Source: Candidatus Latescibacterota bacterium
GTDB lineage: Bacteria > Latescibacterota > UBA2968 > UBA8231
Length of the DNA stretch: 64,000 nt
Reading direction: 5' to 3'
Assembly: GCA_963422735.1 (NCBI GenBank)
Contig: OY730476.1
Coordinates: forward strand, 3,328,001 to 3,392,000
Position 1 is the stretch's first letter, and every line of letters starts with the position of its first letter. Shown piece after piece: positions 22,104 through 50,232 of this stretch. Below the pieces are notes generated by a model. The model did not search any database and had not been told where the DNA came from. It saw nothing but the letters and a program-made list of their open reading frames with translations. Position numbers and translations under genes: made by a program.

Positions 22104-25100
22104 ATGCAATTTTTAGCAGAGAAACTGGAAGTCAGCCGGTCGGAATTATTGGATATGGGCCTGCGTGGCAATACGCTGCTCAACTTTCGTCCCAGCGCGA
22201 AAACGCTCGAAGTGATCGACGAGAAGTCGAGAGAGGTGTTTCAGATATTGGTCGCCGAGCAAAAGCCCATGGCATTTATCCCGGTGCCCGCATCGCTGGA
22301 GGCCGAAAGCGATCCGCAAGCACTGCCGAAAATTTTGGCAGACCAGTACGCAGACCACCGCTATACCGATAACCGCCTGCAAACCAAACTCACCGCGGAC
22401 GCGCTGGATAAAAGCCTGTTAAAAATTAGCGCGGAGGCCGAAAGCTACTATCAAGAGCAGGGCGTTGATCTTTTGTATTTGGCCTTGGGCTTCTTGACTT
22501 GGTATGAAGACAAAAGCTCCTCCACGCCCCGCAAAGCACCGCTTGTATTGGTGCCGGTCGCTTTGGAGCGCGGCAGTGCGAGATCTCGCTACAAGGTGGC
22601 GTACACCGAGGCTGATCTCGGCCCGAATCTGACGCTCGCCACTAAACTAAAAAGCGAGTTCGAGATAACGCTGCCAGAGTTCGGAGAAGAGTTGGACCTT
22701 GATGGGTACTTAAAAGAAGTGGCCGATAGCGTTGATCATCAGCCGCGCTGGCAGGTGCAGGCAGATGAAATCGCGCTTGGGTTTTTTTCTTTTGGCAAGT
22801 TCCAGATGTATCAGGATTTAGATCCGAATAATTGGCCCGAAGGCCACAAGCCCTACGACCACGAAGTGTTGCAAAAATTGATCGACAGCGGATTTGGGGG
22901 CGTCGGCGATGGATCGCTTTCAACGCCGTGTGAAGAGACGTCCTCCGAACTGCCCGAACTCACGGATCTCCACTTTGTGTTGGATGCGGACTCCAGCCAA
23001 ACGCAAGCAGTCATGGCGGTGAAGCAAGGCACCAACTTGGTAATTCAAGGGCCTCCGGGCACGGGCAAATCGCAGACCATTACCAATATCATTGCCGAGG
23101 CTCTTGCCGACGAAAAAACCGTGCTCTTTGTAGCCGAAAAAATGGCCGCCTTAGAGGTGGTAAAACGTCGCCTCGACGAATGCCACTTGGGCGATGCCGT
23201 GCTGGAGCTTCACAGCCACAAGAGCAATAAGAGTGCCGTCCTGCGAGAGCTGAGGCGCACGTTGGAACTCGGCCCGCCGGCCGTGGAGAATCACGCGGCT
23301 AAAAAGCGTCGCCATGCCCAGTTGCGCGAACAACTCGATGCGTATTGCCGCGAGGTGAATCGCCCCATTCTGACTTCGGGAACGAGCTATATAAACGCCC
23401 AAGGGCACCTCCTGAAGCTGAGAGAAGAATCTGGTGAGTGCGAACTGCCGGGATTGGATTTTGCCGAGTTCCGCCATTGGGACGGGGATGCTTTTACAAA
23501 CGCCTGCGCGAATGTGCGCGAACTAGTTGAACATTTAGAGGCGATGGGTATTCCGGCCCGGAGTCCCTTTGCCCAATCGACGCTAGAGCACATTTCACCG
23601 ATTGAGCAAAACGAGGTAGTTACTTGCTTGACTAAAGCACTCGCCTCGCTCGGCGACTGTCGGAAATTGGGTGACACCCTGTCCGAAAAGATAGGGCTAG
23701 ACGGCCCAGAAAATCTCGCCGCCATGAGTGCCATTTGCCGCGCTGGCGAGCGCGTACTGAATGCACCGGCTTTAGAGGGAGTACAGCTAACCGCTGCGGA
23801 CTGGAAACACCGCAGCGAGCAAGTCGAGGCTCTCATCCAAGCCGGTGAAGAAATGACGGTGTTGCAAGACAAGCGGCGCGAGCAATTGATCGAGCAGGCT
23901 TGGCAGGCCAACCTATTGAGTGTGCGCCAAGCGTGGGCCACTACGGGTCGGCACTGGTGGCGTTTTATTTTTCCCAGTTTTCACCGAGCCCGACGCACGC
24001 TGCAAGGTTTGATGAAAGACGAACTGCCAGCCAGTGCGGAAGTATGCGTGGCACTCATCGACGACATTCTCAAGTATCAAGCTCTGTGCAAACCATACGC
24101 CGAGCATGAGTCCTTGGGCGCAAGCCTGTTGGGGATACAATGGAAAGGGCTGCACAGCGATTGGAGTTCATTGAAGGAGCTTAGTGCCTATGTAGTCGGG
24201 TTGCACAAAGAAGTGGGTGAGGGCACGGTGCCGGAAGGCTTACTAAAGTTTTTGGAAAGCGGCGGGAACCTCGGGGGTTGCGAGGAGCAGTTGGAGACGC
24301 TCGAACGCGCTGCTGGCGAACTGCAAGAGCTAATTGACGCGGTGAGCCAGCGTTTGGGGACGGAAGTGCGATCTATTGAAGAGCGACCGTTGGGCGCACT
24401 GGAAGACGAGCTCAACCGTTGGCGCGACCAAATCGGCACTTTAGAGCAGATGGTGCACTACAACCACCTTAGAAAAAAACTTCGCACCAGCGGGTTGGAA
24501 CAGATTGACCGATTGTCTTACGACTGGACATGGCCACCAGCTTTGTTGCTGATATCCCTGAAGAAAGCCTATTACGAGGGCTTAGTGAATGAGGCGTATG
24601 ACAAAAGCGAGACGCTCAAGCGGTTTAACCGGATGAGCCACGAAAGTGCCATCAATGAATTTAGACGCTTGGATGAGGAACTGTTGCACCACGCCCAAGA
24701 AGAGCTGGTCTTGAAACACTACCACAGCTTGCCGGCGGCCAACGCTGCTGGTGAGATGGCGATTATTCGCCGCGAGATAAACAAGAAGCGCCGCCACATG
24801 CCGATTCGTCGGCTAATCGTCCAAGCCGGCCGCGCGATCCAGCAAATAAAGCCCGTGTTTATGATGAGCCCTATGTCGGTGGCGACCTACTTGGAGCAGG
24901 GTGCGCTGGACTTTGATTTGGTGGTCTTTGACGAAGCTAGTCAAGTGAAAGTGGTGGATGCAATCGGCCCGATTCTGCGCGGCGAACAGGTTGTGGTGGT
25001 CGGAGACACGCGCCAGATGCCGCCGACGGACTTCTTTACTAAAGCCTTGGAGCTAGACAACGAAGAAAGTCAGACCGCCGACATTGAGAGTATTTTGAGT

Positions 25101-26762
25101 ATGTTCTTGTTGCAAGGGGCACCGGAGTCCATGTTGCGTTGGCACTATCGAAGCCGACACGATTCCCTGATTGCCGTTTCCAATCGGGAATTTTACGATG
25201 GCCGCTTGATGATCTTCCCTAGCCCCGGGGTGAATCCCTACGCCAAGGGCTTGACGTTTAACCATCTGCCCGAGTCAGTGTACGAGCGCGGTAGTTCGCG
25301 CACTAATCCGGTGGAGGCGCGTGCTGTAGCCGAGGCGGTCATGCGCCACGCCAAAGCGCACCCGGATACGACTTTGGGAGTGGTTGCATTTTCGACGGCT
25401 CAACGCGACTGTATTTTGCTGGAAATCGAGCGGTTGCGGCGCTTGGATCCGAGTTGTGAGGAATTTTTCACTACGGGTGCGCTAGAAGGCTTTTTCGTAA
25501 AAAACTTGGAGAACGTGCAGGGGGATGAGCGCGATGTGATTTTCATCAGCATTGGCTATGGCCGTACGACCGCCGGCAACATGAGTACGAGTTTTGGTCC
25601 GGTGAATCGCGACGGCGGTGAGCGCCGCTTGAATGTGTTGATCACGCGCGCGCACTTGGCGATGGAGGTCTTTAGCAATTTTACGGCGGACGACATTAAA
25701 ACCGAGAGCAATTCGCCGTTTGGGATTCGCGCCTTGAAAAGCTTCTTGCACTACGCGCAGACCGGTGAATTAGAGCATCGCCACGAAACCGGAAAGGAGG
25801 CGGATTCGCCGTTTGAGGAGGCCGTGCGCGACGCCATTCTCCGGCTAGGCTATGACATTGAGCCACAAGTGGGTTCGGCAGGTTTTTATATTGACATTGC
25901 CGTGCGCGACCCCCAAAAGCCCGGCCGCTATATTTTGGCGGTAGAGTGCGACGGCGCGAGTTATCACAGCTCAGCAACGGCCCGTGACCGCGACCGTTTG
26001 CGCCAAAGTGTGCTAGAGGGCTTAGGCTGGCGTTTCCATCGCATTTGGAGTACCGACTGGTTCCGGGATCCCCATAGAGAAAGCGTGCGTCTCAAGGATT
26101 CTATTGACCAAGTGCTGCGCTTTTACGAGGCGGAAGAAACCCACGCCGAGCAACCCCGTGCCGCAGCGCAGCCCAAGCGCATCGAGCGCGACGAGCCGAC
26201 GGAAAACAACTTGCGGGCTGACGCCTATGTGTTGGCCACGGGCGATTTGGGCATTGCTGATTTCGCTGAGATCCACGAGTTGCCATTAGGCAACGTCGCT
26301 CAGGCCATGCGCAAGGTAATTGACATTGAAGGCCCCGTTCACCTGACAGAGGCGGCGCGGCGACTCGCTGAATCGGCCGGCTTTGCCCGCGTGGGTTCGC
26401 GAATACTAGGGCATATAAAACGAGCCGCCGAATACGGCCAAAGGAATGGGTTCCTCTATTTAGAAGGCGACTTCCTGTTTGCCGATAGAGACAAGCCTGT
26501 ACGGATTCGCGACCGCTCGGACATGCCTCCCACCGTTAAGAACATCGAACTGGTACCCGACGAGGAAATTCGCGCGGCCCTGATCGCGGCAATCCGTGCA
26601 GCCTTTAGCCTATCGGAAGAAGAGGCCGTTTCTGAGGCCCTGTCGCTGATGGGCTTTCGCCGCGTAACAGTTAAAGCGAAGCGGAAGGTAGGATCCGCGC
26701 TGAGAAAGCTGGAGCAGGACGGCGCGGTAACGGTTGAGGACGGCAAGGTTTCGGTCGCTTGA
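22104..26762 (+). CDS. DUF4011 / SF1 (UPF1-like) helicase / Vsr-like endonuclease / DUF3320 protein (Hhe-like defence protein)
   Basis: LLDMGLRGNTLLNF, GPPGTGKS, DEASQ, HYRS, VQGDERD, C-terminal FYIDIAV..AVECDGASYH..RDRLRQ..GWRFHRIWSTDW. Confidence 0.88.
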   Translation: MQFLAEKLEVSRSELLDMGLRGNTLLNFRPSAKTLEVIDEKSREVFQILVAEQKPMAFIPVPASLEAESDPQALPKILADQYADHRYTDNRLQTKLTADALDKSLLKISAEAESYYQEQGVDLLYLALGFLTWYEDKSSSTPRKAPLVLVPVALERGSARSRYKVAYTEADLGPNLTLATKLKSEFEITLPEFGEELDLDGYLKEVADSVDHQPRWQVQADEIALGFFSFGKFQMYQDLDPNNWPEGHKPYDHEVLQKLIDSGFGGVGDGSLSTPCEETSSELPELTDLHFVLDADSSQTQAVMAVKQGTNLVIQGPPGTGKSQTITNIIAEALADEKTVLFVAEKMAALEVVKRRLDECHLGDAVLELHSHKSNKSAVLRELRRTLELGPPAVENHAAKKRRHAQLREQLDAYCREVNRPILTSGTSYINAQGHLLKLREESGECELPGLDFAEFRHWDGDAFTNACANVRELVEHLEAMGIPARSPFAQSTLEHISPIEQNEVVTCLTKALASLGDCRKLGDTLSEKIGLDGPENLAAMSAICRAGERVLNAPALEGVQLTAADWKHRSEQVEALIQAGEEMTVLQDKRREQLIEQAWQANLLSVRQAWATTGRHWWRFIFPSFHRARRTLQGLMKDELPASAEVCVALIDDILKYQALCKPYAEHESLGASLLGIQWKGLHSDWSSLKELSAYVVGLHKEVGEGTVPEGLLKFLESGGNLGGCEEQLETLERAAGELQELIDAVSQRLGTEVRSIEERPLGALEDELNRWRDQIGTLEQMVHYNHLRKKLRTSGLEQIDRLSYDWTWPPALLLISLKKAYYEGLVNEAYDKSETLKRFNRMSHESAINEFRRLDEELLHHAQEELVLKHYHSLPAANAAGEMAIIRREINKKRRHMPIRRLIVQAGRAIQQIKPVFMMSPMSVATYLEQGALDFDLVVFDEASQVKVVDAIGPILRGEQVVVVGDTRQMPPTDFFTKALELDNEESQTADIESILSMFLLQGAPESMLRWHYRSRHDSLIAVSNREFYDGRLMIFPSPGVNPYAKGLTFNHLPESVYERGSSRTNPVEARAVAEAVMRHAKAHPDTTLGVVAFSTAQRDCILLEIERLRRLDPSCEEFFTTGALEGFFVKNLENVQGDERDVIFISIGYGRTTAGNMSTSFGPVNRDGGERRLNVLITRAHLAMEVFSNFTADDIKTESNSPFGIRALKSFLHYAQTGELEHRHETGKEADSPFEEAVRDAILRLGYDIEPQVGSAGFYIDIAVRDPQKPGRYILAVECDGASYHSSATARDRDRLRQSVLEGLGWRFHRIWSTDWFRDPHRESVRLKDSIDQVLRFYEAEETHAEQPRAAAQPKRIERDEPTENNLRADAYVLATGDLGIADFAEIHELPLGNVAQAMRKVIDIEGPVHLTEAARRLAESAGFARVGSRILGHIKRAAEYGQRNGFLYLEGDFLFADRDKPVRIRDRSDMPPTVKNIELVPDEEIRAALIAAIRAAFSLSEEEAVSEALSLMGFRRVTVKAKRKVGSALRKLEQDGAVTVEDGKVSVA

Positions 26763-29569: not shown

Positions 29570-29985
29570 TTTTTGCCGCTGGCTGCGCCGCGGTCGGGCG
29601 CCCTCTCTTCGCCCTCTAGCGCAAAGCCGACAAAGCGTTTCTGCCCGAGGGTCTTCAAATATTGGAGCAGAGAAACTTCGGCCTCCTTGCGGTTGAGCTG
29701 GTACTTTTCGCTGAGTAATTCGATCATCTTGCCGACCGAGTTGCGGCCGTTGCACATCCGCCAGACCTCGCTGCCGACCTCGTCGAGGGTGATTTTGCGC
29801 TGCTTGGGGATATAGAAAAACTTGGACAGCAGCCGCACTCTCCAGGTCTCTTGGCGCTTTATTAAAACCTGGACCTCGTCGTTGTCGTTGTTCTCCCAGC
29901 GCAGGGACTCATTGCGCGTTGGCCGCGACGCCAGCATAGCGGCCCGGCTCAGCTTGGGTGCCTTGTTTTTCGATAAAATGCCCAT
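29554..29985 (-). CDS. PqqD family (RRE-like) protein
   Basis: ITLDEVGSEVWRMCNGRNSVGKMIELLSEKY..SLLQYLKTLGQKRFV. Confidence 0.82.
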   Translation of the reverse strand: MGILSKNKAPKLSRAAMLASRPTRNESLRWENNDNDEVQVLIKRQETWRVRLLSKFFYIPKQRKITLDEVGSEVWRMCNGRNSVGKMIELLSEKYQLNRKEAEVSLLQYLKTLGQKRFVGFALEGEERAPDRGAASGKKWQKK

Positions 29986-30901
29986 CTACTACCTTGGTGA
30001 CTAGATCGTCTTCTGTATCTTTCTTGCGGTAGAGGTGCTCGACGATTGCGATTTTGTCAATGCTGGCATCGCGCCAGACGCACCCCCGCAGATACAGGCG
30101 CGGCCTCGGGTTCATAAAGGGCAGGGGACGCAGCAATTGACGCCAGCGACTGCGCGGCCGTCCCTCGACGCGAATGCCCTCGTGCTCCTGCACGGCCTCT
30201 GGAGCAATGTCCACCACCAAGTCGCGCAATTGTTTCTTAAAAAAAACCGGATACCAGTCTTGGATATGTGCGCCTTTGAGCATGATCCGGGCCATGCTCA
30301 ACCGATGCACCCTTAGAACTTGTTTGCCGAGGGAAAACTCTAGCTGGATATGGCCCGACTTGAGGGAATGGCTTTGTAGCTTGAGGTCGCTGGGCGCAAA
30401 AAACCGCAAGCCGTACACGCTCCACAGATGAGCGGACTCGCCTTCTTGGTCCACGAGCGATCTGAACACGGCCTCGGCTTGCTCGGGCAAAAACTCGTCT
30501 AGCTTGGCCAGCACTCTCAAGAGCACAACCCGCCCTGACTCCAAGGCGAGCGCTAGGTTGTACGCGCGGAAGTCGGCCTCCCAGATGAAGACCTCGTAGT
30601 CTCGGCCTTCGAGGAACTTCTTGTTCTTGAGGAATCGAGCGCGGCGCTGGACCTCAAAAGGGGCATCGACTTTTTGGGCCTTCTTTTGCAGGTTAGCCAA
30701 GTAGCGATCTACCAACTCGGTCAGGCGCAGGGCCTCGCCGCGGCCTTTGAGACGCCGCCACTCGATCTCGGCGCGCACAATTTCGGCGTCGTCGAGGCGG
30801 GCATAGCCCTTTTCAAAATCCCCGTCAACTCGGCCGAGATTCCAGTCGTCAGGCACGGACAGCCGCAGCCCTTGCCAAGCGAAATCCACCCAATCGCTCA
30901 T
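29909..30901 (-). CDS. Hypothetical cytoplasmic protein
   Basis: 330-aa ORF starting 2 nt after the upstream gene; no signal peptide. Confidence 0.8.
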   Translation of the reverse strand: MSDWVDFAWQGLRLSVPDDWNLGRVDGDFEKGYARLDDAEIVRAEIEWRRLKGRGEALRLTELVDRYLANLQKKAQKVDAPFEVQRRARFLKNKKFLEGRDYEVFIWEADFRAYNLALALESGRVVLLRVLAKLDEFLPEQAEAVFRSLVDQEGESAHLWSVYGLRFFAPSDLKLQSHSLKSGHIQLEFSLGKQVLRVHRLSMARIMLKGAHIQDWYPVFFKKQLRDLVVDIAPEAVQEHEGIRVEGRPRSRWRQLLRPLPFMNPRPRLYLRGCVWRDASIDKIAIVEHLYRKKDTEDDLVTKVVDGHFIEKQGTQAEPGRYAGVAANAQ

Positions 30902-30902
30902 G

Positions 30903-33323
30903 CTAGAAGATCAGCACGGAGACCGATCTCTGGATTAGGGCGACCCCCACCGATGCCATCCCCATCAAGGCCATGCCGCAGGAGAAGCCCACCGCCAGAA
31001 TCGGAGCAAACTGCCGCCACTCCTGCCGCCCGTACTTGTTCCAGAAGTAGTAGCGAGCCAAGAGTGCGCCGACAATCTCGGTGACGACTAAGTGCGGTAG
31101 GGACGTCAGCGAGCGCACGAAGCCAAAGATCAACAGGATCGGCAGCCCGAGGATGGAGAGCAGAATGAAACTCACCAGCCCGAAGCCGGCCCCAAAGGCG
31201 ATGACCTCTCCCTTGAGTGCTCTATACAGCCAAGGCTCGTCGGTGGAACGCTGGATCCAGGAGCTGGTAAAGAGCGGATCGGTATCGACCTCAAAGTAGA
31301 AGGACCATCCCGCGGGAACGGCTTGCCCGGTCTTTACTTCGAGGGTTGGGCGGGGGTCGCGGATGACGGCGTCCATGGCCGGCCCTAGCGGCGCAATCGC
31401 TGGCAGGCCCTCGACAATGTCCTCTTCGGCTAGCTGTTCGTCGCGTAGGTAGCGCTCGGCGACGATGTCGGGTGCCCCTTGCTCAAAGTACGAGTAGAAA
31501 ACTTGGGTTGGCATCCACGGGCCGATTTGACCGCGCTTGCCGTTGGAGTCCAGCCACTCCTGATCCACCAGCCGCACCCGCCAGTACCACCACTCGTTCT
31601 CGATCAGGTTAGCCGGGGTCCATCCCGCCCGATCACTGTCTATGGCCAATTCGCTGCGCATGGTGCCGGTTATAAAGAGGCATTGCTGGTAGGCCCGCAG
31701 CCGCCAGAATAGCTGGGCATAGGGGTAGGAGGCCGACGGGATTGGTGCCAGTTTCCAGATATAGGAGCCGTAGAGAAAACTGGTAAAGAGCACGATTGGC
31801 ACCATGAAAACCTCGGCGCGGATGATGCTGGTAAACTGGGTGCCGGTCAATTCGATCTCGCGGAACTTCATGGTCTGGGCACCGTAATTGCCCAAGGGAA
31901 ACGGAATGAACCAGATGTCAACGCCGCGATACCCAGAGAGAATAATCGTCGCCTCGCGCACGAAGGGGATGTCCACCGTCTGCCCCACCATCCCGACTAG
32001 GCGAGCATTGACAAAGGACTGAAAGGGCGTGAATACGAAACCAAAAAAGAGGAAAAACCATATAAATTGGGCAATGCCCGGCAGCAGCCAAGCGGCGATG
32101 CCGATTAGGCCGGCCGTGGCCAAGGCATACAGGGCTAGCGCCAGCCAGATGGGGAAATCGCCGCGACCCTCAGGGGTGGCAAAGCTGCGCTTGGGACTGC
32201 CGTCATCCTCAGTGTTGGCCCTAGCTCTGTGCACGCTCTGAAGTACCTGATAGATGCCGATGACGGCGATGGCGATAGTGGTGCCGATGCCGAAGCTCAT
32301 CCAAAAATCGACGTTGTTGACGAAGAAGGTATCTATCGAGCCCATGCCTTGCCGCCACAAGTTAAGATAAGGCTCCTCTCGCCACGAAGGCGTCCAAGTA
32401 TAGAGCAGTGGATTGGCAATCGAGGCGACGACCACGCCGATAAAGGTGCCGACCACGCCCCAGAATGGCACCACTAGCCCGGTAAAGATCGGGCCCAAGT
32501 GCGCGGTAAACCCCAGCGGAGTCGCCGGGATGAAGTTGCCGGTGACTTGCGTGAAGTCAACAAAGGGAATGGGTATGAGTTGGATCGGCTCGGTCAGGAG
32601 TGCGCCGGTAATCGCCGGCAGGGCCACGTAGATCGTGCCAAAGACCAAGCCGATCATCGCTCCCGCTGAGAATACTCGCCAGCGCCAAGTCTCAAGTCCT
32701 TGAGTCGTCTCGGCCAGTGCTGTAGCACCTTGGGCGTTTACGGGCGCGAAAGGAAAGGGCAGGCGCTCGTAGTCGGAGCTGAGCCGGAAGAGCGCGTACG
32801 ACATGGTAAACCAGTTGACGCGCCAGATGATCATCCCCAAGACGAGGAGTACGATCGGCATCGCCCAATCCGCGTGCAGGAAGGTCCGCTCGACGATGGC
32901 TTGGGAGTCGGCCTGCGGTGCCACCCAAGTGGGGATCAGCTTGGCGATGCCAAACTGCTTGGCCGCCGGCGATTGCACCAAGTACTGGTTGTAGAGCAAG
33001 CCTTCAAAGGCACCGGTCTCAGCGGCAATCAGCGAGGCGGCCACGTAGAACAGCACATAGACTTCTTGACGCCGGAGGGAGGAAAAGGAGCGCTTGGTGA
33101 TTTCGGCGAAGAGGATGATGGTCACCCACTCGGCCGCCGCTCCCAAAGAGCCGCCGATCATCAGGCTCAAGTACATGTTGCCCGGCACCATGATAAAGGC
33201 GACGAAGAACACGCCGAGGATGGCCTTGATCGTAAAGCCGTTCTCGAAGCGGTCCGGGACCTGCATTAGATCCCGATATTCTTCGATTTCTTGGTTCGGG
33301 TTTCTATTTTTGCTTCCGAACAC
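30903..33323 (-). CDS. OPT-like multipass membrane transporter with extracytoplasmic beta-domain insert
   Basis: Many TM segments, GGAGG RBS, C-terminal PILAVGFSCGMALMG reminiscent of the last OPT helix. Confidence 0.72.
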   Translation of the reverse strand: MFGSKNRNPNQEIEEYRDLMQVPDRFENGFTIKAILGVFFVAFIMVPGNMYLSLMIGGSLGAAAEWVTIILFAEITKRSFSSLRRQEVYVLFYVAASLIAAETGAFEGLLYNQYLVQSPAAKQFGIAKLIPTWVAPQADSQAIVERTFLHADWAMPIVLLVLGMIIWRVNWFTMSYALFRLSSDYERLPFPFAPVNAQGATALAETTQGLETWRWRVFSAGAMIGLVFGTIYVALPAITGALLTEPIQLIPIPFVDFTQVTGNFIPATPLGFTAHLGPIFTGLVVPFWGVVGTFIGVVVASIANPLLYTWTPSWREEPYLNLWRQGMGSIDTFFVNNVDFWMSFGIGTTIAIAVIGIYQVLQSVHRARANTEDDGSPKRSFATPEGRGDFPIWLALALYALATAGLIGIAAWLLPGIAQFIWFFLFFGFVFTPFQSFVNARLVGMVGQTVDIPFVREATIILSGYRGVDIWFIPFPLGNYGAQTMKFREIELTGTQFTSIIRAEVFMVPIVLFTSFLYGSYIWKLAPIPSASYPYAQLFWRLRAYQQCLFITGTMRSELAIDSDRAGWTPANLIENEWWYWRVRLVDQEWLDSNGKRGQIGPWMPTQVFYSYFEQGAPDIVAERYLRDEQLAEEDIVEGLPAIAPLGPAMDAVIRDPRPTLEVKTGQAVPAGWSFYFEVDTDPLFTSSWIQRSTDEPWLYRALKGEVIAFGAGFGLVSFILLSILGLPILLIFGFVRSLTSLPHLVVTEIVGALLARYYFWNKYGRQEWRQFAPILAVGFSCGMALMGMASVGVALIQRSVSVLIF

Positions 33324-33336
33324 TCGCTATCCTCCC

Positions 33337-36300
33337 TTACGCCGACACTTCGCTGCGCAGCCCTTGCAGAATTTCCGCGCCCTGCTGGCGGTAGCCTTCT
33401 TTGGCCTCGGCATCCACCGTGCGCCAGATGAGGAACTGTTTGCGGATGACGTTCATAAAGCGCTGGTTGACCCTCCGCCACGAGGCGTCCTCGCCGCTGA
33501 GTCGCTTAATTTGCAGGCCGACTGCGTAAATGTTGTGCTCGGCCTCTGGCATGGCCCGCACGGTGACGTGTTGGCTGACGCCCAAGTCGAAAGGAGCCAG
33601 CCAGATATTCATGTCGATGAGGTACCCTTCGCCGTTGGGCGTTTCTTCGCGGCTTAGCTGGGCGCCGTCGGTGTAGAAGGTGCCGATGGATTCCTCGCTG
33701 TAGGAGTCGAAGTAGCCGATGAGGAATACGCTTAAGCCTAAGACCTCGTGGCCGCTGACCGTAAAGGGGAACTCGAAATCCCACTGGTCGCCATCGGGCG
33801 GCGGCAGCTTCCACTTGCGGGTCACGTCCGGCACGGCCATCTGCGAAGCCTTGCGTGCCGGATAGATCGTCGAGAGCATGACCACGGCCATCACTAGCAT
33901 ACAGGAGAGCACTGCGGCTACCGAGGAGTAGTTGAGCGTAAAGCCGCCTAAAAGATCGGACTCGATGAGCACCTTGGCGATTACTTGGCCGCTGAGATAA
34001 CCGGCGACGACGCCCAGCACCGAATATACGCAACTCTCGGCGATAAACAGCCAAGAGATATGGCCGGGGGCTAGGCCCACCGAAGAGTAGATGCCGATTT
34101 CGCGGAAGCGCTCGTACACGCTGCCCATCATGGTGTTGAGCACAATAAGCGAGGCGATCAGCATGGGGATGAACAAGTTGCTCATCCCGGAAAAGGAGGT
34201 CAGCCCTAGCGATGAGTAGATCGCCACCTTGATGTATTCGTCGCCGGGCTCCTTGATCCCGGCGAACAGCGTCACCGCGAGGCGCGAGAGGAACTCCTCG
34301 ACCTCGGTGCGCACGTCGCTGCCCTCGGGGAAGCGCACGGCCACGGATTGCAGGGGGTTGCCGCTGCCGACGTTGCGCAGCGTGTGGTAGGGCGCGATTA
34401 GGATGTTGGCTGGCTCTAGATGGACAAAGGGCTTGATGACGACCTGGGCATCCTCCAAGCCCTGCTTCTCGCGCTGCTCCTCCTCGGCTATTTCCTGCAC
34501 GGCTTGGCCGCCGGTGACGGCGAAGTCGGCCGGCGTCAGGATTTCGTCGTCGAGGTCTTTGAGGTCCTTCATCCGCTTGGAGTCGAGGACGCCTACTACT
34601 GTAAACAAGTCGCCGAAGACCCTGACTTGCGTTCGGCCGACTTCGGCCAAGTCGATGTCGAGATGGGCCTCCTTGACCATGTCGATGGGCAGGATACAGA
34701 CCTTGTCCTCGCCCGGCTTAAACCACCGCCCGGCCACTAGGGCTTGATCCAGCCCAGTGACCTCGGTTTCCTCCGGGGTCAATCCGAGGACGCCGAGCGC
34801 GTTATGGGCCTTGTCGCCGTGTTTTATTTTGATGTGTGCCTTGGCCTTGTTGCTGTACCAGCTACGCGGTGCGACCGCGGTCCGATCACCGAAATTGCTG
34901 CGGGCGTATTCGAGCACGGAATCTTCCATCGGATTCCACGCCTTGCTGCGGATTAGGATGCCTTCATAGAGGCCCTCGTTGTCGCGACTGATTTGGTTGA
35001 ACCGCAGGCCCGTGCGGATGGAAGTGAAGGAGAGGACCGTAAAGGTCAGCAACAAGAGCGTGGTGAAGGTGAGGACTGTGCGCGTCTTGCGCCGCTTCAT
35101 GTTGGAAATCCCGAGATGGAAGGCCGTCAGCGAGGCCGAAGAGCGGCTGACGTCCGTGTCGTGGATCACGGCTACCTCAGTGCGCAGCTTCTTCATTTGC
35201 TCGTTGAAGCGGCCGGAAATGATCGACATCACGAGAACGGCCAGCGCGATGATGATGAAAGCAAGCAGGATGATGAAGGGATTGGATAGCTGAAAGGCCG
35301 GATGTACCATCCACAACACGATCCAGATCGCCAGGAAAACCCCGACAAAGCCGATGATCTGATTGCGGATCGTGGCGGCCGTAAAAATAAGCCGCTCGGT
35401 AAAAAAGGCGCAGGGAAGGACGAGGGCCATAAAGAAGATAATGCCCTGAACGACGTCGTTTTGGGTGGATTTGACGTCTGGATAGGCGCGCGACTCTAGC
35501 CCGAAGGCTGCGCGCGTGTGGCGCACGAAATCGCCCCAGCGCAGCTCGGTGCCAGCCACTGCGGCTTGGTCTAGCTCGGTCTCGGCCCGGTAGTGGAGGT
35601 CGTTGAGGCGCTGGTTTTCAATGGCAAAGCTCCGCAGTTCGCGCATCCGCGACTCGTCGAGATTCCACATGTCTTGGGCGGCTTGGAAGGTCGTGCGGGC
35701 AAAAGAGGTGCCGGGGCGGATCTCAAAGCCCTCGCCTTCGGCCTTGTCTTTGTCGGTGACGCTGGTGGCGTTGAGCAGCAGCGAGCGAAAGCCGAGTATG
35801 CCCGCGCCAAAACCCATTTTTATGCGCGAGCCGGGCCGTGCGAAGAGCACTCCGACCGGCTCGTTTTGGGCCGAGGGGCCTTCGCCGATGGTGTAACCGT
35901 ACTCCACGGGCGCGCTGTTCGTCTCGTCGAAGACCTGTACGTTGGACAGCTTGGTGAGATAGCGCGGATCGACGATGTCGAAGAAATTGTAGGGCACGCA
36001 GGGGAAGAGGATGACCATCCACTGCTTGTCGCGCCAGTCCATGGAGACCTTCATCGGGTAGATCTCGTCGCCTTGTACGCCGCGGTCCGGGGCGTAGGTG
36101 ATGCGGCCGGTGATCGGGTCCATGTAGTAGCCCTCGATCTGCACGTTGTTGACCCGTACCCGATTTACGTAAAAGGCCCCCTTATCATTGACGACCTCGT
36201 AGTACTCACCGCGCACGCCTTTATACGACTTTTTCTTGCCGTTGCGCACGACGGCCACTGCGTCTGCACGCGGCAGGTCGGGGATGATGCTGCGGCGCGG

Positions 36301-38163
36301 AAAGACCATGGTCCGGCCGCGAAGCGAGCGCAGATTGTCGCGCAGGCGCATCTTGAAGTCCGGGAAAAGCTCTGGGTCTTCAAAGGCCATCTCGAACATA
36401 CCGGAGAGCACCCGGATCTGTTTGGCGAGATTGGCGTGGTTGACGCGCTCGGCCCGGTCTAAGGGCGTATCGACGAGGAAGCGCGCGTCGTTGACTGTGA
36501 CAAAGGCCAACGCTGGCGTACCGGTTGCCAACACCAATTCGCTGTTGACCGATATTTCGCCCGGTACAAAGGTCTGCCAGCTCATCCCGCCTTCGGGACT
36601 GATGCCATTGACCAGCACGTCGCGCCGCTGGTAGTCTAACTCGCGGCTGATCTTGCGCGCATAAGCCATAAAGTTCTTGCCAAAGGGCGCGAAGTAGCGC
36701 TTGTAGTAAAAGCTGGTATTGCTATTCCAGACCCCAAGTTCGTCGGTCTGCGACGAAAGGTCGAGGCTAATGAAGAGATTGACTGCGAGCGAATCGACTT
36801 TGGGGTCGGCCCAGCGTTTGTAGAGCGCGAGGCGCAAGTCGTCGTCCGAGCGCAACTCATCAACAAGTTCGTGGCGATTTTTGAATCGCTTGCCGGCGAG
36901 GTGCAGTGCGCCTTCTTCTCGGCTCAGCAGCCTCTTAATGCCCTCTATTGTCTTTTTCCACAAGCCCCATGAGCTGCTGGATGTGTCTTCCTCTTGGCCC
37001 AGCAGCCCTTCAGCGAGTGCGGCGTCGGCAATGTGCGCGGCCAAGTCGGTGCGCCCTTCGGCAACGTTCCGCACGAGGGCTTCTTTGCCGGTAAACTCCT
37101 CCTCGCCGATGGCGTAGTGGATGCCGTCTTGGGCGATCATGTTCCGTGCGAGTGCGGCATCGACGACCCGCCGCACCAGCATGTGTTCGATAAAAGGATC
37201 CTCTTTACGCAAATAGCGCTGGATGAAATCATCGACCCCGCGCAAGCCCAAGTGGTGGGCCGAAGTAGCGAGGAAGACGACCGTGCGCGCCGGCGGGTTC
37301 GCACGAAAATAGCGCGCTATTTCCAACAGCGCAGTAATACTGGAGGCCTGCTCGGCCCCCGGGGCGAGGGCCGGCACGACCGACATGGCGTCGTAGTACG
37401 CCTCCAGCACGATCACGTCCTCTTTCATCAAGGGATCGTATCCAGGGATCGTGCCGAGGATATTCCAAGCGGGACGTCGCTCCCAATCCATGCGGTACTC
37501 CAAGTGGAGCGTCTGCTCACCTCCTGCGGCCAACTGGCGGCGCAAGTGCTGGCCGGCTTGGCGATTGATCCAGAACCTCGGCAGGCCGAGCGGCATGGTG
37601 AGGAACTTCTTTTCGCCCTCCAAGTACACGGTGGAGTCCGGCTCGATAAAGACGATGGCCTGGGCCCCGAGATAGGCGGCATTGAGCCAAGCGTCGCCCG
37701 AATTGAAGTCCATCAGAGCCACAGCCCCTTCGACTTGTTTGCCGTCCATGTCCGCGTACTCGCCCTTGCCGGCGTCTATCAAGCGTCCGGTCACCCCGCC
37801 TTCGGGCAGCGTCGAGGTTTTGACTAGATTGGGCCAGAGGCCGTGGATTGGCACTTGTTCGCCGCTTTGGATGACCCGCAGGAATCCGCCCTTATCGACT
37901 GGAATCGAGACATCGTATTCGTGGACAACGACGTCGTCAAGGCCGATTGCACGGAAGCGTTCCTGCACGATCTGGGCCGCTTGATCGGCACCTGGATAGC
38001 CGGCAACTCTAGACCCCAAGCCGGCAAAAATGTCCATCGTCTGCTGCACGCGCTCGACCGGGGCCGTGCGTACCAACTCGGCAAAATCGACCTCGGCCCG
38101 GGCCAGTGCCGCGCTGGCCAAAATCCAGCCGAGGGCCATCCACCTCACCGCGAACTTAGGCAT
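33337..38163 (-). CDS. M28-like/PA ectodomain fused to MacB/FtsX-type permease (1608 aa)
   Basis: Signal peptide; SRVAGYPG, AYYDAMSVVPALAPGAEQ; NMKRRKTRTVLT; LNTMMGSVYERFREIGIYSSVG. Confidence 0.85.
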   Translation of the reverse strand: MPKFAVRWMALGWILASAALARAEVDFAELVRTAPVERVQQTMDIFAGLGSRVAGYPGADQAAQIVQERFRAIGLDDVVVHEYDVSIPVDKGGFLRVIQSGEQVPIHGLWPNLVKTSTLPEGGVTGRLIDAGKGEYADMDGKQVEGAVALMDFNSGDAWLNAAYLGAQAIVFIEPDSTVYLEGEKKFLTMPLGLPRFWINRQAGQHLRRQLAAGGEQTLHLEYRMDWERRPAWNILGTIPGYDPLMKEDVIVLEAYYDAMSVVPALAPGAEQASSITALLEIARYFRANPPARTVVFLATSAHHLGLRGVDDFIQRYLRKEDPFIEHMLVRRVVDAALARNMIAQDGIHYAIGEEEFTGKEALVRNVAEGRTDLAAHIADAALAEGLLGQEEDTSSSSWGLWKKTIEGIKRLLSREEGALHLAGKRFKNRHELVDELRSDDDLRLALYKRWADPKVDSLAVNLFISLDLSSQTDELGVWNSNTSFYYKRYFAPFGKNFMAYARKISRELDYQRRDVLVNGISPEGGMSWQTFVPGEISVNSELVLATGTPALAFVTVNDARFLVDTPLDRAERVNHANLAKQIRVLSGMFEMAFEDPELFPDFKMRLRDNLRSLRGRTMVFPRRSIIPDLPRADAVAVVRNGKKKSYKGVRGEYYEVVNDKGAFYVNRVRVNNVQIEGYYMDPITGRITYAPDRGVQGDEIYPMKVSMDWRDKQWMVILFPCVPYNFFDIVDPRYLTKLSNVQVFDETNSAPVEYGYTIGEGPSAQNEPVGVLFARPGSRIKMGFGAGILGFRSLLLNATSVTDKDKAEGEGFEIRPGTSFARTTFQAAQDMWNLDESRMRELRSFAIENQRLNDLHYRAETELDQAAVAGTELRWGDFVRHTRAAFGLESRAYPDVKSTQNDVVQGIIFFMALVLPCAFFTERLIFTAATIRNQIIGFVGVFLAIWIVLWMVHPAFQLSNPFIILLAFIIIALAVLVMSIISGRFNEQMKKLRTEVAVIHDTDVSRSSASLTAFHLGISNMKRRKTRTVLTFTTLLLLTFTVLSFTSIRTGLRFNQISRDNEGLYEGILIRSKAWNPMEDSVLEYARSNFGDRTAVAPRSWYSNKAKAHIKIKHGDKAHNALGVLGLTPEETEVTGLDQALVAGRWFKPGEDKVCILPIDMVKEAHLDIDLAEVGRTQVRVFGDLFTVVGVLDSKRMKDLKDLDDEILTPADFAVTGGQAVQEIAEEEQREKQGLEDAQVVIKPFVHLEPANILIAPYHTLRNVGSGNPLQSVAVRFPEGSDVRTEVEEFLSRLAVTLFAGIKEPGDEYIKVAIYSSLGLTSFSGMSNLFIPMLIASLIVLNTMMGSVYERFREIGIYSSVGLAPGHISWLFIAESCVYSVLGVVAGYLSGQVIAKVLIESDLLGGFTLNYSSVAAVLSCMLVMAVVMLSTIYPARKASQMAVPDVTRKWKLPPPDGDQWDFEFPFTVSGHEVLGLSVFLIGYFDSYSEESIGTFYTDGAQLSREETPNGEGYLIDMNIWLAPFDLGVSQHVTVRAMPEAEHNIYAVGLQIKRLSGEDASWRRVNQRFMNVIRKQFLIWRTVDAEAKEGYRQQGAEILQGLRSEVSA

Positions 38164-40188: not shown

Positions 40189-40776
40189 TTAATGGCCCTG
40201 GTCCAACCAGCCTATTTTCTCTAGTTGCTCCAAGGTCCACCAAGCTAATAGGCCGATCGCCCCCCCGCTCACCAAAGCGCTGAACAAGGCCAGCGGCAAA
40301 AGCGCGAACAGACCGCTGTGGCCGATATAGCCAGAGGCGAGAACGAGCTGGCTGAGTTGGTGCGCCAACGCGCCCCAGATGCTCAGGCCCACGACGCTGA
40401 AAAGCCGCGTTCCCATGCGGCGCACCGCAACCATGACCAGCCAGCTCGCCAAGCCAGCCCCGCCGCCGATGACAAAGGCCGGACCGGCAAATCCCCCGCT
40501 GAGCAAGCCACCAGCTACGATCTTGATGACACTAACGGCCAACGCCGGGCCGCCGCCAAAGCTCACCAGCGCGACCAAAACCGGCAGATTTCCGAGCCCC
40601 AACTTCATCCAGGGCAAGGGTTTGGGCACCAGCGATTCAAAGGCGAAGAGCACGATTGCTGCACTGGCCATAAGCCCCAAACGGGCCACGTCTCTAGGTC
40701 GCGCAAACATCAGCGAACCATCGCGTCTATGGGTGTGGCACCAGCGATTCTCAGCACTAGGCCGTTGGGCACGCAC
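40189..40776 (-). CDS. Gx transporter family protein (heptaprenyl diphosphate synthase component I / ECF S-like)
   Basis: FESLVPKPLPWMKLGLGN, GLSIWGALAHQLSQL; true start may be near 40710. Confidence 0.82.
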   Translation of the reverse strand: MRAQRPSAENRWCHTHRRDGSLMFARPRDVARLGLMASAAIVLFAFESLVPKPLPWMKLGLGNLPVLVALVSFGGGPALAVSVIKIVAGGLLSGGFAGPAFVIGGGAGLASWLVMVAVRRMGTRLFSVVGLSIWGALAHQLSQLVLASGYIGHSGLFALLPLALFSALVSGGAIGLLAWWTLEQLEKIGWLDQGH

Positions 40777-47099: not shown

Positions 47100-47144
47100 T
47101 TAAACGCATGGCAATTGCCATCTCACCCCAACCTGGAGGCTGCC

Positions 47145-47819
47145 ATGCGCCCTTTTATCGCCCTTATCTTTTTCGCTCTCGTCGCACCCCTTGCGGCCCA
47201 ACCCGGCCCGGTCGTCATCTCCGAGCTGATGTGGTCGGGCAGTACGGCATCTACGGCCGACGAGTGGATCGAACTCTACAACTCTAGCGACGCAGCGGTT
47301 GATCTAGCCGGCTGGACCCTGACCTATCGCAGCGGCAGCGAGGACAAGGCGATGTTCGTCCTCGACGCCGCTGCGATTCCCGCCGGACAGACCTTTCTCA
47401 TCGCCAACTACGCCGCCGATCACAAAAATTCCCTCCTCGCCGTCCAACCTCAGCTCGTTGACGCCGCCGTTTCGCTGCCCAACACCAAGCTGCTCTTACA
47501 GCTTTACGATGGCGACCCGCAAGCTGGGGGCCAACTCATCGACGTGGCCGACGATGGCCGCGGGGCCCCTTTCGCCGGTGATGCGGCCAACAAAAGTGCC
47601 ATGGTGCGGATTGCCTTTGACCAGCCCGGCGACCAGTCCGAAAGCTGGACGACGGCAACTGAACAAAGCGGCTGGGATGCGGGTGCCAGCGAGTTGGGCA
47701 CGCCGGGCTCCATTCCCGCGTACCTGCTCCAAGACGGAGACGAAGCACCCGACCGCGTCATGGGAACGAACATTTTACCGATGCCTTGGGCTTTAGTAAA
47801 AGAGCATCTATATCCATAG
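47145..47819 (+). CDS. Secreted lamin-tail-domain protein
   Basis: GGAGG RBS, signal peptide, VVISELMW..DEWIELYN..VDLAGWTL, GTPG. Confidence 0.85.
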   Translation: MRPFIALIFFALVAPLAAQPGPVVISELMWSGSTASTADEWIELYNSSDAAVDLAGWTLTYRSGSEDKAMFVLDAAAIPAGQTFLIANYAADHKNSLLAVQPQLVDAAVSLPNTKLLLQLYDGDPQAGGQLIDVADDGRGAPFAGDAANKSAMVRIAFDQPGDQSESWTTATEQSGWDAGASELGTPGSIPAYLLQDGDEAPDRVMGTNILPMPWALVKEHLYP

Positions 47820-48039: not shown

Positions 48040-50232
48040 TCAATGTCCGTTGTGCCCAGCGGCAAAGCGAAATTTTGGCAGGGCTACTTCAGTTGCCGAC
48101 TGGTGGCCCTCGCGCAGGCGGTACGCTCGGTCGAGCTTCAGTCCCTGCCAGCGCTGAGTCTGATGGGTTGCCGGCCAGGTGATTTCCACAAACTCCAATG
48201 CCACAGCGACCCCCAGCCCGAGTTGCGGCGCGAGTGGATTAGCCCCAAAGCTGCCGCCTGAGCCGATGAGGTGGTGGATGTCGCGGGTGCTTCCGTCCGG
48301 TCCCCGTACGCGTACGCGTACGCGGCCGCCAATAGCACCTCGATTCGACTGCAAGCCTTGGGGAAACAATCGCAGCCAGCGATTGCCGTGCCCGGGATTT
48401 TCGTAGAGTACGTTCTGGTAGAGGTCGCCTTCAAAGGCACCGCCCATGACCTCGAAGATGTCTTGGTCTCCATCGTTGTCGAGGTCGGCAAAGGACACGC
48501 CGTGTCCTTTCTGCACGTTGCCGAAGCCGCCGGCCGTGGTGACGTCCCAAAACCGCGCACCACCGTCGTTGCGCAGCATGCGGTTGGGCGTGAGCGAGCG
48601 CAGATCGGGAATCCCGGTACCTACGTAGCAGTCGGGGAACCCATCGTTGTCCAAGTCGCCGTAGTTAGCGCCCATGGCTAGGATGACTTGCCTAAAGCCC
48701 CCCAGCGATTCGGTGACTTCGGTGAAGGTGCCATCTCCGTCGTTGTGGTACACGTGTGCGTGGTCGGCGGCAAATTCTTCGCCGAGGTACGTGCGCGCCA
48801 TGTCGCCGAGGTCGTCCATGTTGTAGCCGCCGGCAAACAAATCGAGCCAGCCGTCGTTGTCGTAGTCCCAAAACCAAGTGGGAAAGCTCTCGGTCGGCCC
48901 TGGCGCGACGACTCTCGCCGCAAAGCGCCAGCCCTCTGGTGTGTCGCCGAGGTTGCGGTAGAGGACGTTTTCTCGATAGAACTGGGATACGTATAGGTCG
49001 ATCAAACCATCGTTGTCTATATCGCCCCAAGCAACCCCTTTCACAAAGCCCACGTGATCGACGCCGACTGTGGGGGCCACATCGACAAAACGGCCGTCCC
49101 CTTGGTTGCGAAACAACTGGCATGGGTGGGGCCTCCTGCCGGATTCGTTGCCGACGAACAGGTCCAACCAGCCGTCGTTGTCGTAGTCGGCAAAGGCCGC
49201 TGAGTGGGTTGGGTGCAAGGTGAACAAGCCGGCGCGTCGTGTCACGTCTGCAAATGTGCCGTCGCCGTTGTTGCGCAACAGGGAGTTGGGCATGCGGCCC
49301 TCTTCCCCCATCCAAGCACCGCGCAAAACGAGCAGATCGACATCGCCGTCGTTGTCGTAGTCGGCCTGCTCGAGGTTGATTCCCCCGATTTGCCCGGCTA
49401 GTCCGGCCGCTGTCGTGGCCTCGATAAAAGTGCCGTCGCCCTCGTTGTGAAAATAGCGCAGGGGATCGCGCAGTCCCCACGAGGAGACTGCAATATCTAG
49501 CAGACCATCGCCGTCGAAATCCTCGACCGCGCTGCCGCCCGCTAGGCCCATGGCTGCGACTCCAGCCGTCGGTGCTACGTCGTGGAAGCGTTGGATGCCG
49601 CCGTCGCCGTCGAATACGCGCGGGGGAATGCGATAGAGGTCTGGCACCCCTTCCGGGTATTCGCCCAAGGTCATGTACGCCAAGTTCAACAGCCAGCGCG
49701 TTCCCAGATCGCTTGGGCGCTTGTTCAGGTTTATGGTATAGTGCTCGATGGCGCGGCGGGAGCCTTCCTGCAAGCGGTGGATGCCGTCGCCGCGGATCGG
49801 CAGCAAGCAGGAATTCGCGGTGTGGTTGCGCAGACAATTCTCCTGCTCTCCGAGGCGCAGATAGGCGATGGCGAGCTGGTCGTGCAGCATATAGACGAAG
49901 CCCTCGGTCGCCGGTACCTGCCCCGCCTCTACGGCCGCTAGAATGCTTTGCATCTCTTCAATGCCCGTGCGCAAATCCCCGGCTCGCACCCGCTCTTGGG
50001 CAATCCGCAGGCGCATGTTCAGCCGCTTGCCCACGCTCATCGGTTGCCCTAGCAGGGAGCTAAAGCCCTCGACGCGGGCTTGGTTCAGGTAGATGTTGGC
50101 AATGGGATCGGCCCGCTGGGCGAGGCGCGCCAGCACCGTCGCCATAAAACGCGAATCCCCGCGATCGACGCTGGCGTCCACCTGCCCCAAGACGGCTGTG
50201 GCCCATAGCAGGACGGCTATAATGCTCTGCAT
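48040..50232 (-). CDS. CRTAC1 family protein (FG-GAP repeats plus ASPIC/UnbV)
   Basis: Repeated DYDNDGxxDL motifs, NRGAIGGRVRV, C-terminal EITWP. Confidence 0.9.
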   Translation of the reverse strand: MQSIIAVLLWATAVLGQVDASVDRGDSRFMATVLARLAQRADPIANIYLNQARVEGFSSLLGQPMSVGKRLNMRLRIAQERVRAGDLRTGIEEMQSILAAVEAGQVPATEGFVYMLHDQLAIAYLRLGEQENCLRNHTANSCLLPIRGDGIHRLQEGSRRAIEHYTINLNKRPSDLGTRWLLNLAYMTLGEYPEGVPDLYRIPPRVFDGDGGIQRFHDVAPTAGVAAMGLAGGSAVEDFDGDGLLDIAVSSWGLRDPLRYFHNEGDGTFIEATTAAGLAGQIGGINLEQADYDNDGDVDLLVLRGAWMGEEGRMPNSLLRNNGDGTFADVTRRAGLFTLHPTHSAAFADYDNDGWLDLFVGNESGRRPHPCQLFRNQGDGRFVDVAPTVGVDHVGFVKGVAWGDIDNDGLIDLYVSQFYRENVLYRNLGDTPEGWRFAARVVAPGPTESFPTWFWDYDNDGWLDLFAGGYNMDDLGDMARTYLGEEFAADHAHVYHNDGDGTFTEVTESLGGFRQVILAMGANYGDLDNDGFPDCYVGTGIPDLRSLTPNRMLRNDGGARFWDVTTAGGFGNVQKGHGVSFADLDNDGDQDIFEVMGGAFEGDLYQNVLYENPGHGNRWLRLFPQGLQSNRGAIGGRVRVRVRGPDGSTRDIHHLIGSGGSFGANPLAPQLGLGVAVALEFVEITWPATHQTQRWQGLKLDRAYRLREGHQSATEVALPKFRFAAGHNGH

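Follow-up and report, generated by a model that had tools for sequence, protein, structure and literature searches.

The window described here is a stretch of 64,000 nucleotides from a Candidatus Latescibacterota bacterium (assembly GCA_963422735.1, contig OY730476.1, positions 3,328,001 to 3,392,000). Its minus strand encodes a membrane protein of 1608 residues in which an ectodomain resembling the peptidases of family M28 precedes a permease module of the MacB/FtsX type. In this protein and its relatives, the residues of the canonical M28 active site have been replaced, and the pattern of conservation indicates that the former active site is remodelled, not decayed. We consider, with moderate confidence, that the ectodomain is a non-canonical ligand-binding head, possibly for peptides, of an envelope system, and that it functions in the manner of the transferrin receptor (TfR), nicalin and nicastrin but does not belong specifically with the latter two. 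The gene and the parts of the ectodomain that carry this reading are:

33337..38163, minus strand: the whole gene, encoding the 1608-residue membrane protein with an M28-like ectodomain and a MacB/FtsX-type permease module (open reading frame, Pfam)
36319..38094, minus strand: PA-domain and M28-fold ectodomain, residues 24–615 (AlphaFold2 (AF2) model, structural matches)
37230..37420, minus strand: the stretch flagged in an earlier sequence-only reading, residues ~249–312, with YYD at 256–258, GAEQ at 269–272 and AHH at 302–304 (alignment to 6hc6, conservation)
36454..36762, minus strand: second half of the former active site, LDL with D468, and NDxR...VDTPxD with D559, R561, D565 and D569

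The former active site

HMMER aligned residues 44–321 to YwaD of Bacillus subtilis (6hc6) with an E-value of 7.3e-10, placing YYD opposite HYD, GAEQ opposite GAND and AHH opposite AEE. The changes proposed in the sequence-only reading, from HxD to YYD, from GADD to GAEQ and from EE to AHH, are borne out by this alignment and by the conservation described below, and the canonical co-catalytic zinc site is gone. The peptide quoted in that reading spans residues 255–286. The Peptidase_M28 family of Pfam (PF04389) matched the protein with an E-value of 1.8e-9 and 38 bits, against a cut-off of 21.3 bits, over positions 1–79 only of the 193 in the profile. The second half of the site was located with the canonical outgroup P0221, which carries HYD, GADD, GEEE, NLDM and YHxPxD. 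In a MAFFT alignment that included this outgroup, D468 fell on the canonical Asp ligand (in NLDM) and D565 on the last canonical His ligand (in YHxPxD). The five-ligand set of M28, His/Asp/Glu/Asp/His, has become Tyr256, Gln272, His304, Asp468 and Asp565, with Asp468 the sole ligand kept. In the numbering of the Aeromonas aminopeptidase (AAP), we take the correspondences to be His97 to Tyr256, Asp99 to Asp258 (unchanged), Asp117 to Gln272 (with Glu271 before it), Glu151 to His303, Glu152 to His304, Asp179 to Asp468 (unchanged) and His256 to Asp565.

The replaced positions were nearly invariant among 121 aligned homologs, and the replacements recurred in 121 of 121. Conservation was also measured in a diverse set of 35 sequences, 31–71% identical to the window protein, that comprised orthologs, the five paralogs from the same genome and divergent fragments. 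At least 94% identity was found at 46 ectodomain positions, about 20 of which surround the old pocket; the conserved pocket positions are Y257, D258, S261–P264, P268, A270, E271, H303, G309, L467–L469, D559, R561, D565–P567 and D569. His303, which replaces the general-base Glu, was present in all 35 members, and E271, D468 and D565 were each kept in 34. The alignments show these four residues to be conserved candidates for ligands, placed at the former metal positions or next to them, and, together with D258 and R561, parts of a near-invariant constellation across the family.

Position 256 was Tyr in 32 sequences, His in two and Phe in one. Since position 272 was Met, Gln, Asn, Ser, Ala, Arg or Thr and acidic in none of the 35, and position 304 was His (17 sequences), Phe (16), Cys (one) or Tyr (one), a canonical binuclear zinc site is excluded for the family. 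All five other paralogs in the genome have the motif [A/G]-H-F, with Phe at 304; AHH is thus a trait of the orthogroup to which the window protein belongs, and the family as a whole is marked by an invariant His with either His or Phe after it. A reading of the site as decayed, or of the gene as a pseudogene, was ruled out: the replaced residues rank with the best conserved, and hundreds of genomes carry an unbroken frame. The label "pseudopeptidase", given in the sequence-only reading, is also too strong: with the replaced positions among the most conserved of the protein, a rebuilt and possibly metal-binding site is still a candidate.

Fold and nearest relatives

The AF2 model of residues 24–615 had a predicted local distance difference test score (pLDDT) of 76.7 and a predicted template modelling score (pTM) of 0.77. 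In a search across structure representatives, the Aneurinibacillus aminopeptidase 2ek8 matched with Z 29.1 and a root-mean-square deviation (rmsd) of 7.3 over 388 of 412 residues, AAP (1rtq) with Z 26.9 and rmsd 2.7 over 266 residues, 3iib with Z 26.4 and TfR with Z 24.6. The top ranks in Foldseek were 2ek8, 6hc6, TfR, 3iib, PaAP and GCPII. Among the matches listed, the only other presumed non-peptidase M28-like chain was the glycosylphosphatidylinositol (GPI)-transamidase subunit (7w72_A, 7wld_G; Z 20.4), which we take to be GPAA1. Sequence profiles were compared with the PDB. A profile of orthologs (A1) found 2ek8 (E 5e-12), 6hc6 (2.3e-10) and nicalin (7e-4), and no nicastrin match. A broader profile (A3), which adds paralogs and divergent members, found 2ek8 at 4.5e-21 over 288 positions, 6hc6 at 2.3e-18, 2anp at 9e-9 and nicalin at 1.7e-8 and, more weakly, wild-type AAP at ~1e-6, TfR at 1e-4 and nicastrin at 0.17. 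As modelled, the ectodomain is a PA-domain M28 fold, for which the bacterial aminopeptidases are the best matches in both sequence and structure.

The PA-domain aminopeptidases from Aneurinibacillus (2ek8) and B. subtilis (YwaD/BSAP, 6hc6) have the same domain order as the window ectodomain, consisting of an N-terminal strand region, an inserted PA domain and the M28 core. They are secreted enzymes with a full binuclear zinc site and a Glu general base, whereas the domain in the window heads a membrane protein, and the loop from HxD to GA is 3–4 residues longer in the window family than in these enzymes. TfR1 and GCPII (M28B) also present a PA and M28-like ectodomain on a membrane protein (Foldseek E ~1e-15 to 1e-17), and TfR is a non-catalytic receptor built on the same fold, although its likeness in sequence is weak (E 1e-4). 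Unlike the window protein, they are animal type II single-pass proteins with a C-terminal helical dimerisation domain and no FtsX module.

An insert of about 130 residues (~330–460; window 36780–37170) separates the two halves of the M28 core and, in the model, resembles two copies of a small unit of three strands and a helix. It is present in the orthogroup of the window protein and absent from the divergent members and from all five in-genome paralogs.

Relation to nicalin and nicastrin

Nicalin had been named in the sequence-only reading on account of the motif region, and when this region of 52 residues was searched alone, nicalin was indeed the best sequence match in the PDB (E 0.0018), with the PA-domain aminopeptidases unreported at E ≤ 10. 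With profile A3, the nicalin match was limited to ~75 of ~590 residues and scored ahead of wild-type AAP, TfR and GCPII. The alignment to nicalin was gapless from HxD through GA-[D/E]-x, where 2ek8 and 6hc6 need gaps of 3–4 residues, and this loop is short in two canonical M28 genes from the genome of the window. At the GAxx motif, divergent members of the family read GAES, GADS or GAEN. Nicalin shares with the window family the long loop, an acidic third and non-Asp fourth residue of GAxx, and an ectodomain that precedes the membrane anchor. It differs in being a eukaryotic protein of the endoplasmic reticulum, in retaining the first His, and in having GGK at the place of the family's invariant His. 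Its C-terminal half failed to align, the second stretch scoring −1.0 bits.

Nicastrin is the non-catalytic M28-clan ectodomain of the γ-secretase membrane complex, with a DYIGS motif and a lid (small lobe) over the pocket. It matched the motif region of the window protein weakly and locally (13.3 bits with A3), and the Nicastrin family of Pfam had no match at E ≤ 10 to the 1608-residue protein. In terms of rank, to which this observation is confined, neither nicalin nor nicastrin was among the 50 structural matches listed (lowest Z 18.1) or in the Foldseek rows to rank 50. The comparison with nicalin therefore holds for the motif, where the local likeness is significant, while over the whole domain the closest relatives are the bacterial PA-M28 aminopeptidases. 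The specific kinship with nicalin and nicastrin that had been suggested is not supported, in view of the far stronger and longer match to 2ek8, the GGK of nicalin and the nicastrin E-value.

The surroundings of the two ectodomains differ as well. In the relevant passage of PMC7505659, nicalin is described as having a single C-terminal transmembrane (TM) helix, paired with a seven-TM, APH-1-like partner, TMEM147. In the window protein, three TM helices and a four-TM FtsX module follow the ectodomain, and the partners are a DUF6785/6784 protein and P0222, both described below.

Organization of the 1608-residue protein

Beyond the M28-like domain, the protein comprises the following parts:

38095..38163, minus strand: signal peptide, residues 1–23, with an end of the Ala-x-Ala type (predicted by reading the translation)
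35449..36366, minus strand: distal ectodomain, residues 600–905, with a transthyretin-like β-sandwich, a further β region and a juxtamembrane three-helix bundle (AF2)
35209..35451, minus strand: three extra TM helices, ~905–985 (Kyte–Doolittle hydropathy)
33847..35079, minus strand: MacB/FtsX module, residues ~1029–1439, with TM1, periplasmic core domain, TM2–4 and the ERxREIG coupling-helix motif
33340..33846, minus strand: conserved cytoplasmic C-terminal tail of ~170 residues, without known family

Pfam placed Peptidase_M28 at residues 234–319, MacB_PCD at 1029–1215 and FtsX at 1331–1442. From the translation and hydropathy, the ectodomain extends from the signal peptide to about residue 900, or ~880 residues ahead of the first TM helix, which supports the assignment of the flagged stretch to an ectodomain. 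Hydropathy and Pfam together placed TM1 at 1029–1049 and TM2–4 at 1323–1437, with a short cytoplasmic loop ahead of the MacB/FtsX module, and the resulting membrane orientation is self-consistent across the domain order. The N-terminal hydrophobic stretch varies among homologs.

The AF2 model of residues 600–905 had a pLDDT of 80.2. Its best VIA matches, Z 8–10 over ~80 residues, are to generic β-sandwiches and are meaningful at the level of the fold only. At rank 14 (Z 8.0) they included a NOMO chain from the human BOS complex, to which nicalin belongs (9c7u_B); we treated this as a common fold and not as a link, though the coincidence with the nicalin lead is curious. The sequence RAYPDVKSTQ at residues ~890–905 (window 35440–35500), which closes the three-helix bundle just before the first TM helix, is among the most conserved stretches of the protein. 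The cytoplasmic tail is present in all six paralogs of the genome; it had no Pfam match at E ≤ 10, and the ESM Atlas gave no usable match for it.

The family is widespread. At least 619 full-length homologs were found at E ≤ 0.001 among 8000 scored candidates. The genome from which the window is taken is a single contig of 4.95 Mb and contains six paralogs of the M28-like/FtsX architecture. Of the 151 genomes of the phylum searched (150 sampled plus that of the window), 138 contained the family at E ≤ 1e-20, usually in several copies; it was found in 13 of 14 families, the exception being a family with 0/13. By their submitter labels, relatives belong mostly to Latescibacterota, with some from Gemmatimonadota and others, and their public names are "M28 family peptidase" or "FtsX-like permease family protein" only.

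The FtsX module and the missing ATPase

Both Pfam families of the permease module scored above their cut-offs (FtsX, PF02687, 57 bits; MacB_PCD, PF12704, 34.6 bits), and its profile matches in the PDB were MacB (5lil, E 1.5e-9), YtrF, LolC and LolF. The module has in common with MacB, LolCE and FtsX, the type VII ATP-binding cassette (ABC) permeases, an FtsX domain, a periplasmic core domain between TM1 and TM2, a four-TM topology and the coupling-helix motif. Unlike these permeases, the window protein has no fused or adjacent nucleotide-binding domain (NBD), while it has three extra TM helices, an extra N-terminal ectodomain and a private cytoplasmic tail, and its association with DUF6785/6784-type proteins is apparently obligate.

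Eighty orthologous loci from other genomes were searched for an ATPase. No NBD was found near any of them by tblastn with one NBD probe, and a scan for the Walker A and signature motifs was likewise empty at all 80 loci, while its positive control in the window fired. There was also no ABC ATPase at the paralog loci. In the window's own genome, the nearest NBD lies 16.5–82 kb from the six M28-like/FtsX genes, compared to 0.45–4.0 kb for each of the 14 FtsX matches of the conventional kind.

The same genome contains an orphan MacB/FtsE-like NBD of 250 residues (C1:64867-65619, locus L088), with no membrane protein nearby. It is 58% identical to an FtsX-adjacent NBD, and its neighbours were recognised by eye from their N-termini as DnaK-like, UvrB-like and epimerase-like. 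Orthologs (82–96% identity) were found in 59 of 63 genomes of the window's own family and were recognisable only there; since the M28-like/FtsX family is phylum-wide, the orphan NBD is not its universal partner. An ATPase may nonetheless act in trans. Co-occurrence of the two was considered and set aside as uninformative, because the NBD orthologs are recognisable only in family f1 and the sole clade without the M28-like/FtsX family (f10) offers a single distant contrast.

Membrane partners, synteny and a natural fusion

The gene lies in a row with three others, separated by gaps of 17, 13 and 1 bases in the order DUF6785, 1608-residue protein, P0222 and P0223:

38181..40151, minus strand: upstream partner, a DUF6785/DUF6784 polytopic membrane protein of 656 residues (Pfam E 4.2e-125 and 1.7e-30)
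30903..33323, minus strand: downstream partner P0222, a polytopic membrane protein of 806 residues with a C-terminus weakly like that of the oligopeptide transporters (OPT)
29909..30901, minus strand: P0223, a soluble protein of 330 residues and no known family (no Pfam match at E ≤ 10)

At the 80 orthologous loci, P0222 followed the gene in 64, P0223 was present in 57 and DUF6785 preceded the gene in 41, many of the misses being contig ends. The paralog loci and a natural fusion are independent evidence for the partnership. A DUF6785/6784 homolog adjoins all five of the other paralogs and a P0222-like protein adjoins three; the paralog loci yielded no P0223. In L083, one of these paralogs, the M28-like/FtsX protein and the DUF6785/6784 protein are joined in one frame of 2094 residues (L083:7189-13473; C1:1561688-1567972). 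A junction probe of 121 residues gave stop-free matches that began no later than query residue 5 and reached residue 121; they came from 15 other genomes, belonging to 5 genera, so the fusion is not an assembly error. The matched frames were 2118–2661 residues long in 11 of these 15 genomes and 842–1690 residues in the other four. Such a conserved fusion points to physical coupling of the M28-like/FtsX protein with the DUF6785/6784 protein, and the 2094-residue form would be a convenient construct for structural work.

The two membrane partners are probably remote paralogs of each other, as judged by profile. An hhalign comparison of P0222 with the DUF6785 family gave 90.7% (E 1.3e-6, 212 columns); direct BLASTP between the two window proteins gave E 0.14, so the link is visible by profile–profile comparison only. 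Pfam OPT matched only two places in the genome, both of them P0222-family genes and both in the C-terminal ~95 positions only: the L081 copy scored 26.7 bits (cut-off 25.8) and P0222 in the window 21 bits (E 3.2e-4). Of the NCBIfam models, OPT_sfam matched P0222 with E 1.2e-4 and TIGR00728 with 21 bits against a cut-off of 128. The rest of P0222 has no detectable similarity. Sequence searches of the PDB with the DUF6785 protein and P0222 returned nothing below E 0.1, and the ESM Atlas gave no usable match for P0222.

The P0222-like partner of paralog L081 (L081:11610-14801) has 1063 residues and includes two PDZ domains (E 4.5e-15), located where P0222 of the window has a variable soluble insert. 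At another paralog locus, a PIN-domain gene of 126 residues (L082:6353-6733, E 3.7e-15) separates the M28-like/FtsX gene from its DUF6785 partner and may be an inserted toxin–antitoxin element. Just upstream of the row in the window is a membrane protein of the Hpre_diP_synt_I family (195 residues; window 40189-40776, minus strand), co-located in 65 of the 80 orthologous loci.

Proposed function and alternatives

Substrate or ligand recognition, which the sequence-only reading had proposed for the flagged domain, is the most plausible reading of these observations. The fusion to a MacB/FtsX-type membrane protein had gone unnoticed in the sequence-only reading. In our model, the ectodomain would form the periplasmic head of an inner-membrane protein and would no longer act as a co-catalytic zinc aminopeptidase. 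The old pocket, possibly with a single metal, may anchor an invariant chemical group of the ligand, most plausibly a peptide terminus, and the head would present the ligand to the permease-like membrane proteins attached to it, or hand it over to them. Specificity would then differ among the six paralogs in the genome. What suggests a peptide ligand is the descent from aminopeptidases, the presence of a PA domain, the two PDZ domains of one partner and the OPT-like character of another.

Several points weigh against this model. The nature of the ligand is conjectural, and the resemblance of P0222 to OPT that contributes to the conjecture covers only ~95 C-terminal positions, with a single copy passing the curated cut-off. 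The two most conserved pocket loops, 261–267 and 559–568, are the least confident parts of the AF2 model (pLDDT < 50). Synteny in the 80 orthologous loci extends to the housekeeping genes RecD2 and RelA, so part of it reflects phylogenetic inertia. The ERxREIG motif is nearly invariant, which suggests an ATPase partner. Finally, the invariant His at the general-base position and the three invariant carboxylates could, from their sequence positions, equally form a catalytic single-metal site.

This last point leads to the alternative to which we give most weight, while still thinking it rather doubtful: that E271, H303, D468 and D565 are a rebuilt hydrolytic site, single-metal or metal-free, of a membrane-tethered peptidase or amidase that feeds the adjacent OPT-like transporters. 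The retention of these residues in 34–35 of 35 sequences at 31–71% identity is more than a scaffold would need, they lie at or next to canonical active-site positions, and the fold superposes on AAP. Moreover, the best-scoring AAP entry in every search was 2anp, which we take to be the E151H variant. This variant was reportedly still functional, so that a His at the general-base position can apparently support catalysis with metals. Glutaminyl cyclases, M28-fold enzymes that work with one zinc, were also among the structural matches, but their single-zinc site, by a mapping that we assume, uses exactly the positions lost here, and positions 272 and 304 are often occupied by residues that do not bind metal (Met, Ala, Phe). 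It is a good deal less probable that the family is a specific prokaryotic sister of nicalin, with nicastrin more distant, and that the long loop and GA-[D/E]-x were inherited and not acquired by convergence. The first rank of nicalin with the 52-residue region, the A3 score, the gapless loop set against the short loop of the canonical M28 genes, the GAES, GADS and GAEN motifs of divergent members, and the similar layout, with an ectodomain N-terminal to the anchor and polytopic membrane partners, would all fit such a relationship. However, the likeness is confined to ~75 residues, with GGK in place of the invariant His and an unaligned C-terminal half; comparisons of the whole domain in sequence and structure put the bacterial PA-M28 enzymes first; nicastrin reached only E 0.17 by profile and had no match in Pfam, and both proteins were missing from the structural matches listed; and as far as tested, the partners show no match to the seven-TM partners of nicalin and nicastrin.

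We regard as very unlikely a reading of the protein as a conventional type VII ABC permease of the MacB/FtsEX-like, mechanotransmission kind, in which the degenerate head would regulate another periplasmic enzyme as EnvC does and the ATPase would be encoded elsewhere. The scores of FtsX and MacB_PCD, the coupling-helix motif and the existence of an orphan NBD are consistent with this idea. Against it, none of the six paralogs has an NBD within 16 kb, a distance that is below 4 kb for all conventional FtsX genes; clear orthologs of the orphan NBD were found only in the window's own family; and six paralogs with transporter-like partners fit substrate handling better than regulation of the cell wall. 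Extending the ligand-binding model, the family could be the core of a hitherto undescribed, ATPase-independent envelope machine, near-universal in Latescibacterota, in which an aminopeptidase-derived receptor head with a rebuilt, perhaps metal-bearing pocket sits on a repurposed FtsX scaffold and is physically coupled to OPT-related permeases in the import or processing of peptide-like ligands, and could perhaps be the closest prokaryotic relative of nicalin. This picture is speculative and improbable as a whole; if true, it would provide a bacterial model for how dead M28 domains become substrate receptors of membrane complexes.

Most of the non-catalytic M28 domains on record are eukaryotic, as in TfR, nicalin, nicastrin and the GPI-transamidase subunit. 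Such domains and FtsX permeases are known kinds; the literature searched does not describe the two combined, with a site that has been rebuilt under selection and without an ATPase. In it, we found no description of an M28-FtsX family in Latescibacteria or of an ATPase-less FtsX–peptidase fusion, and none of DUF6785/DUF6784. The family calls into question the rule by which FtsX-type permeases are paired with a cognate ABC ATPase, and DUF6785, DUF6784 and the P0222 family, to which no function is assigned, gain a firm physical partner and thereby a handle for experiments. The nicalin link, weak as it is, can be tested. Genome surveys, as represented by the relevant part of PMC4454575, count M28 matches as nutritional aminopeptidases; such counts, and the current annotations, probably misdescribe several genes per genome across the whole phylum.

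Other genes in the window

A 1552-residue protein (window 22104-26762, plus strand) has DUF4011, AAA_11/AAA_12 helicase, MTES_1575 restriction-endonuclease-like and DUF3320 domains, and is a helicase–nuclease of the kind often linked to defence. Two further proteins are probably secreted or located at the surface: one with a lamin-tail domain (window 47115-47819, plus strand; E 5.2e-16) and one with FG-GAP/ASPIC-UnbV repeats (window 48040-50232, minus strand; E 4.4e-48).

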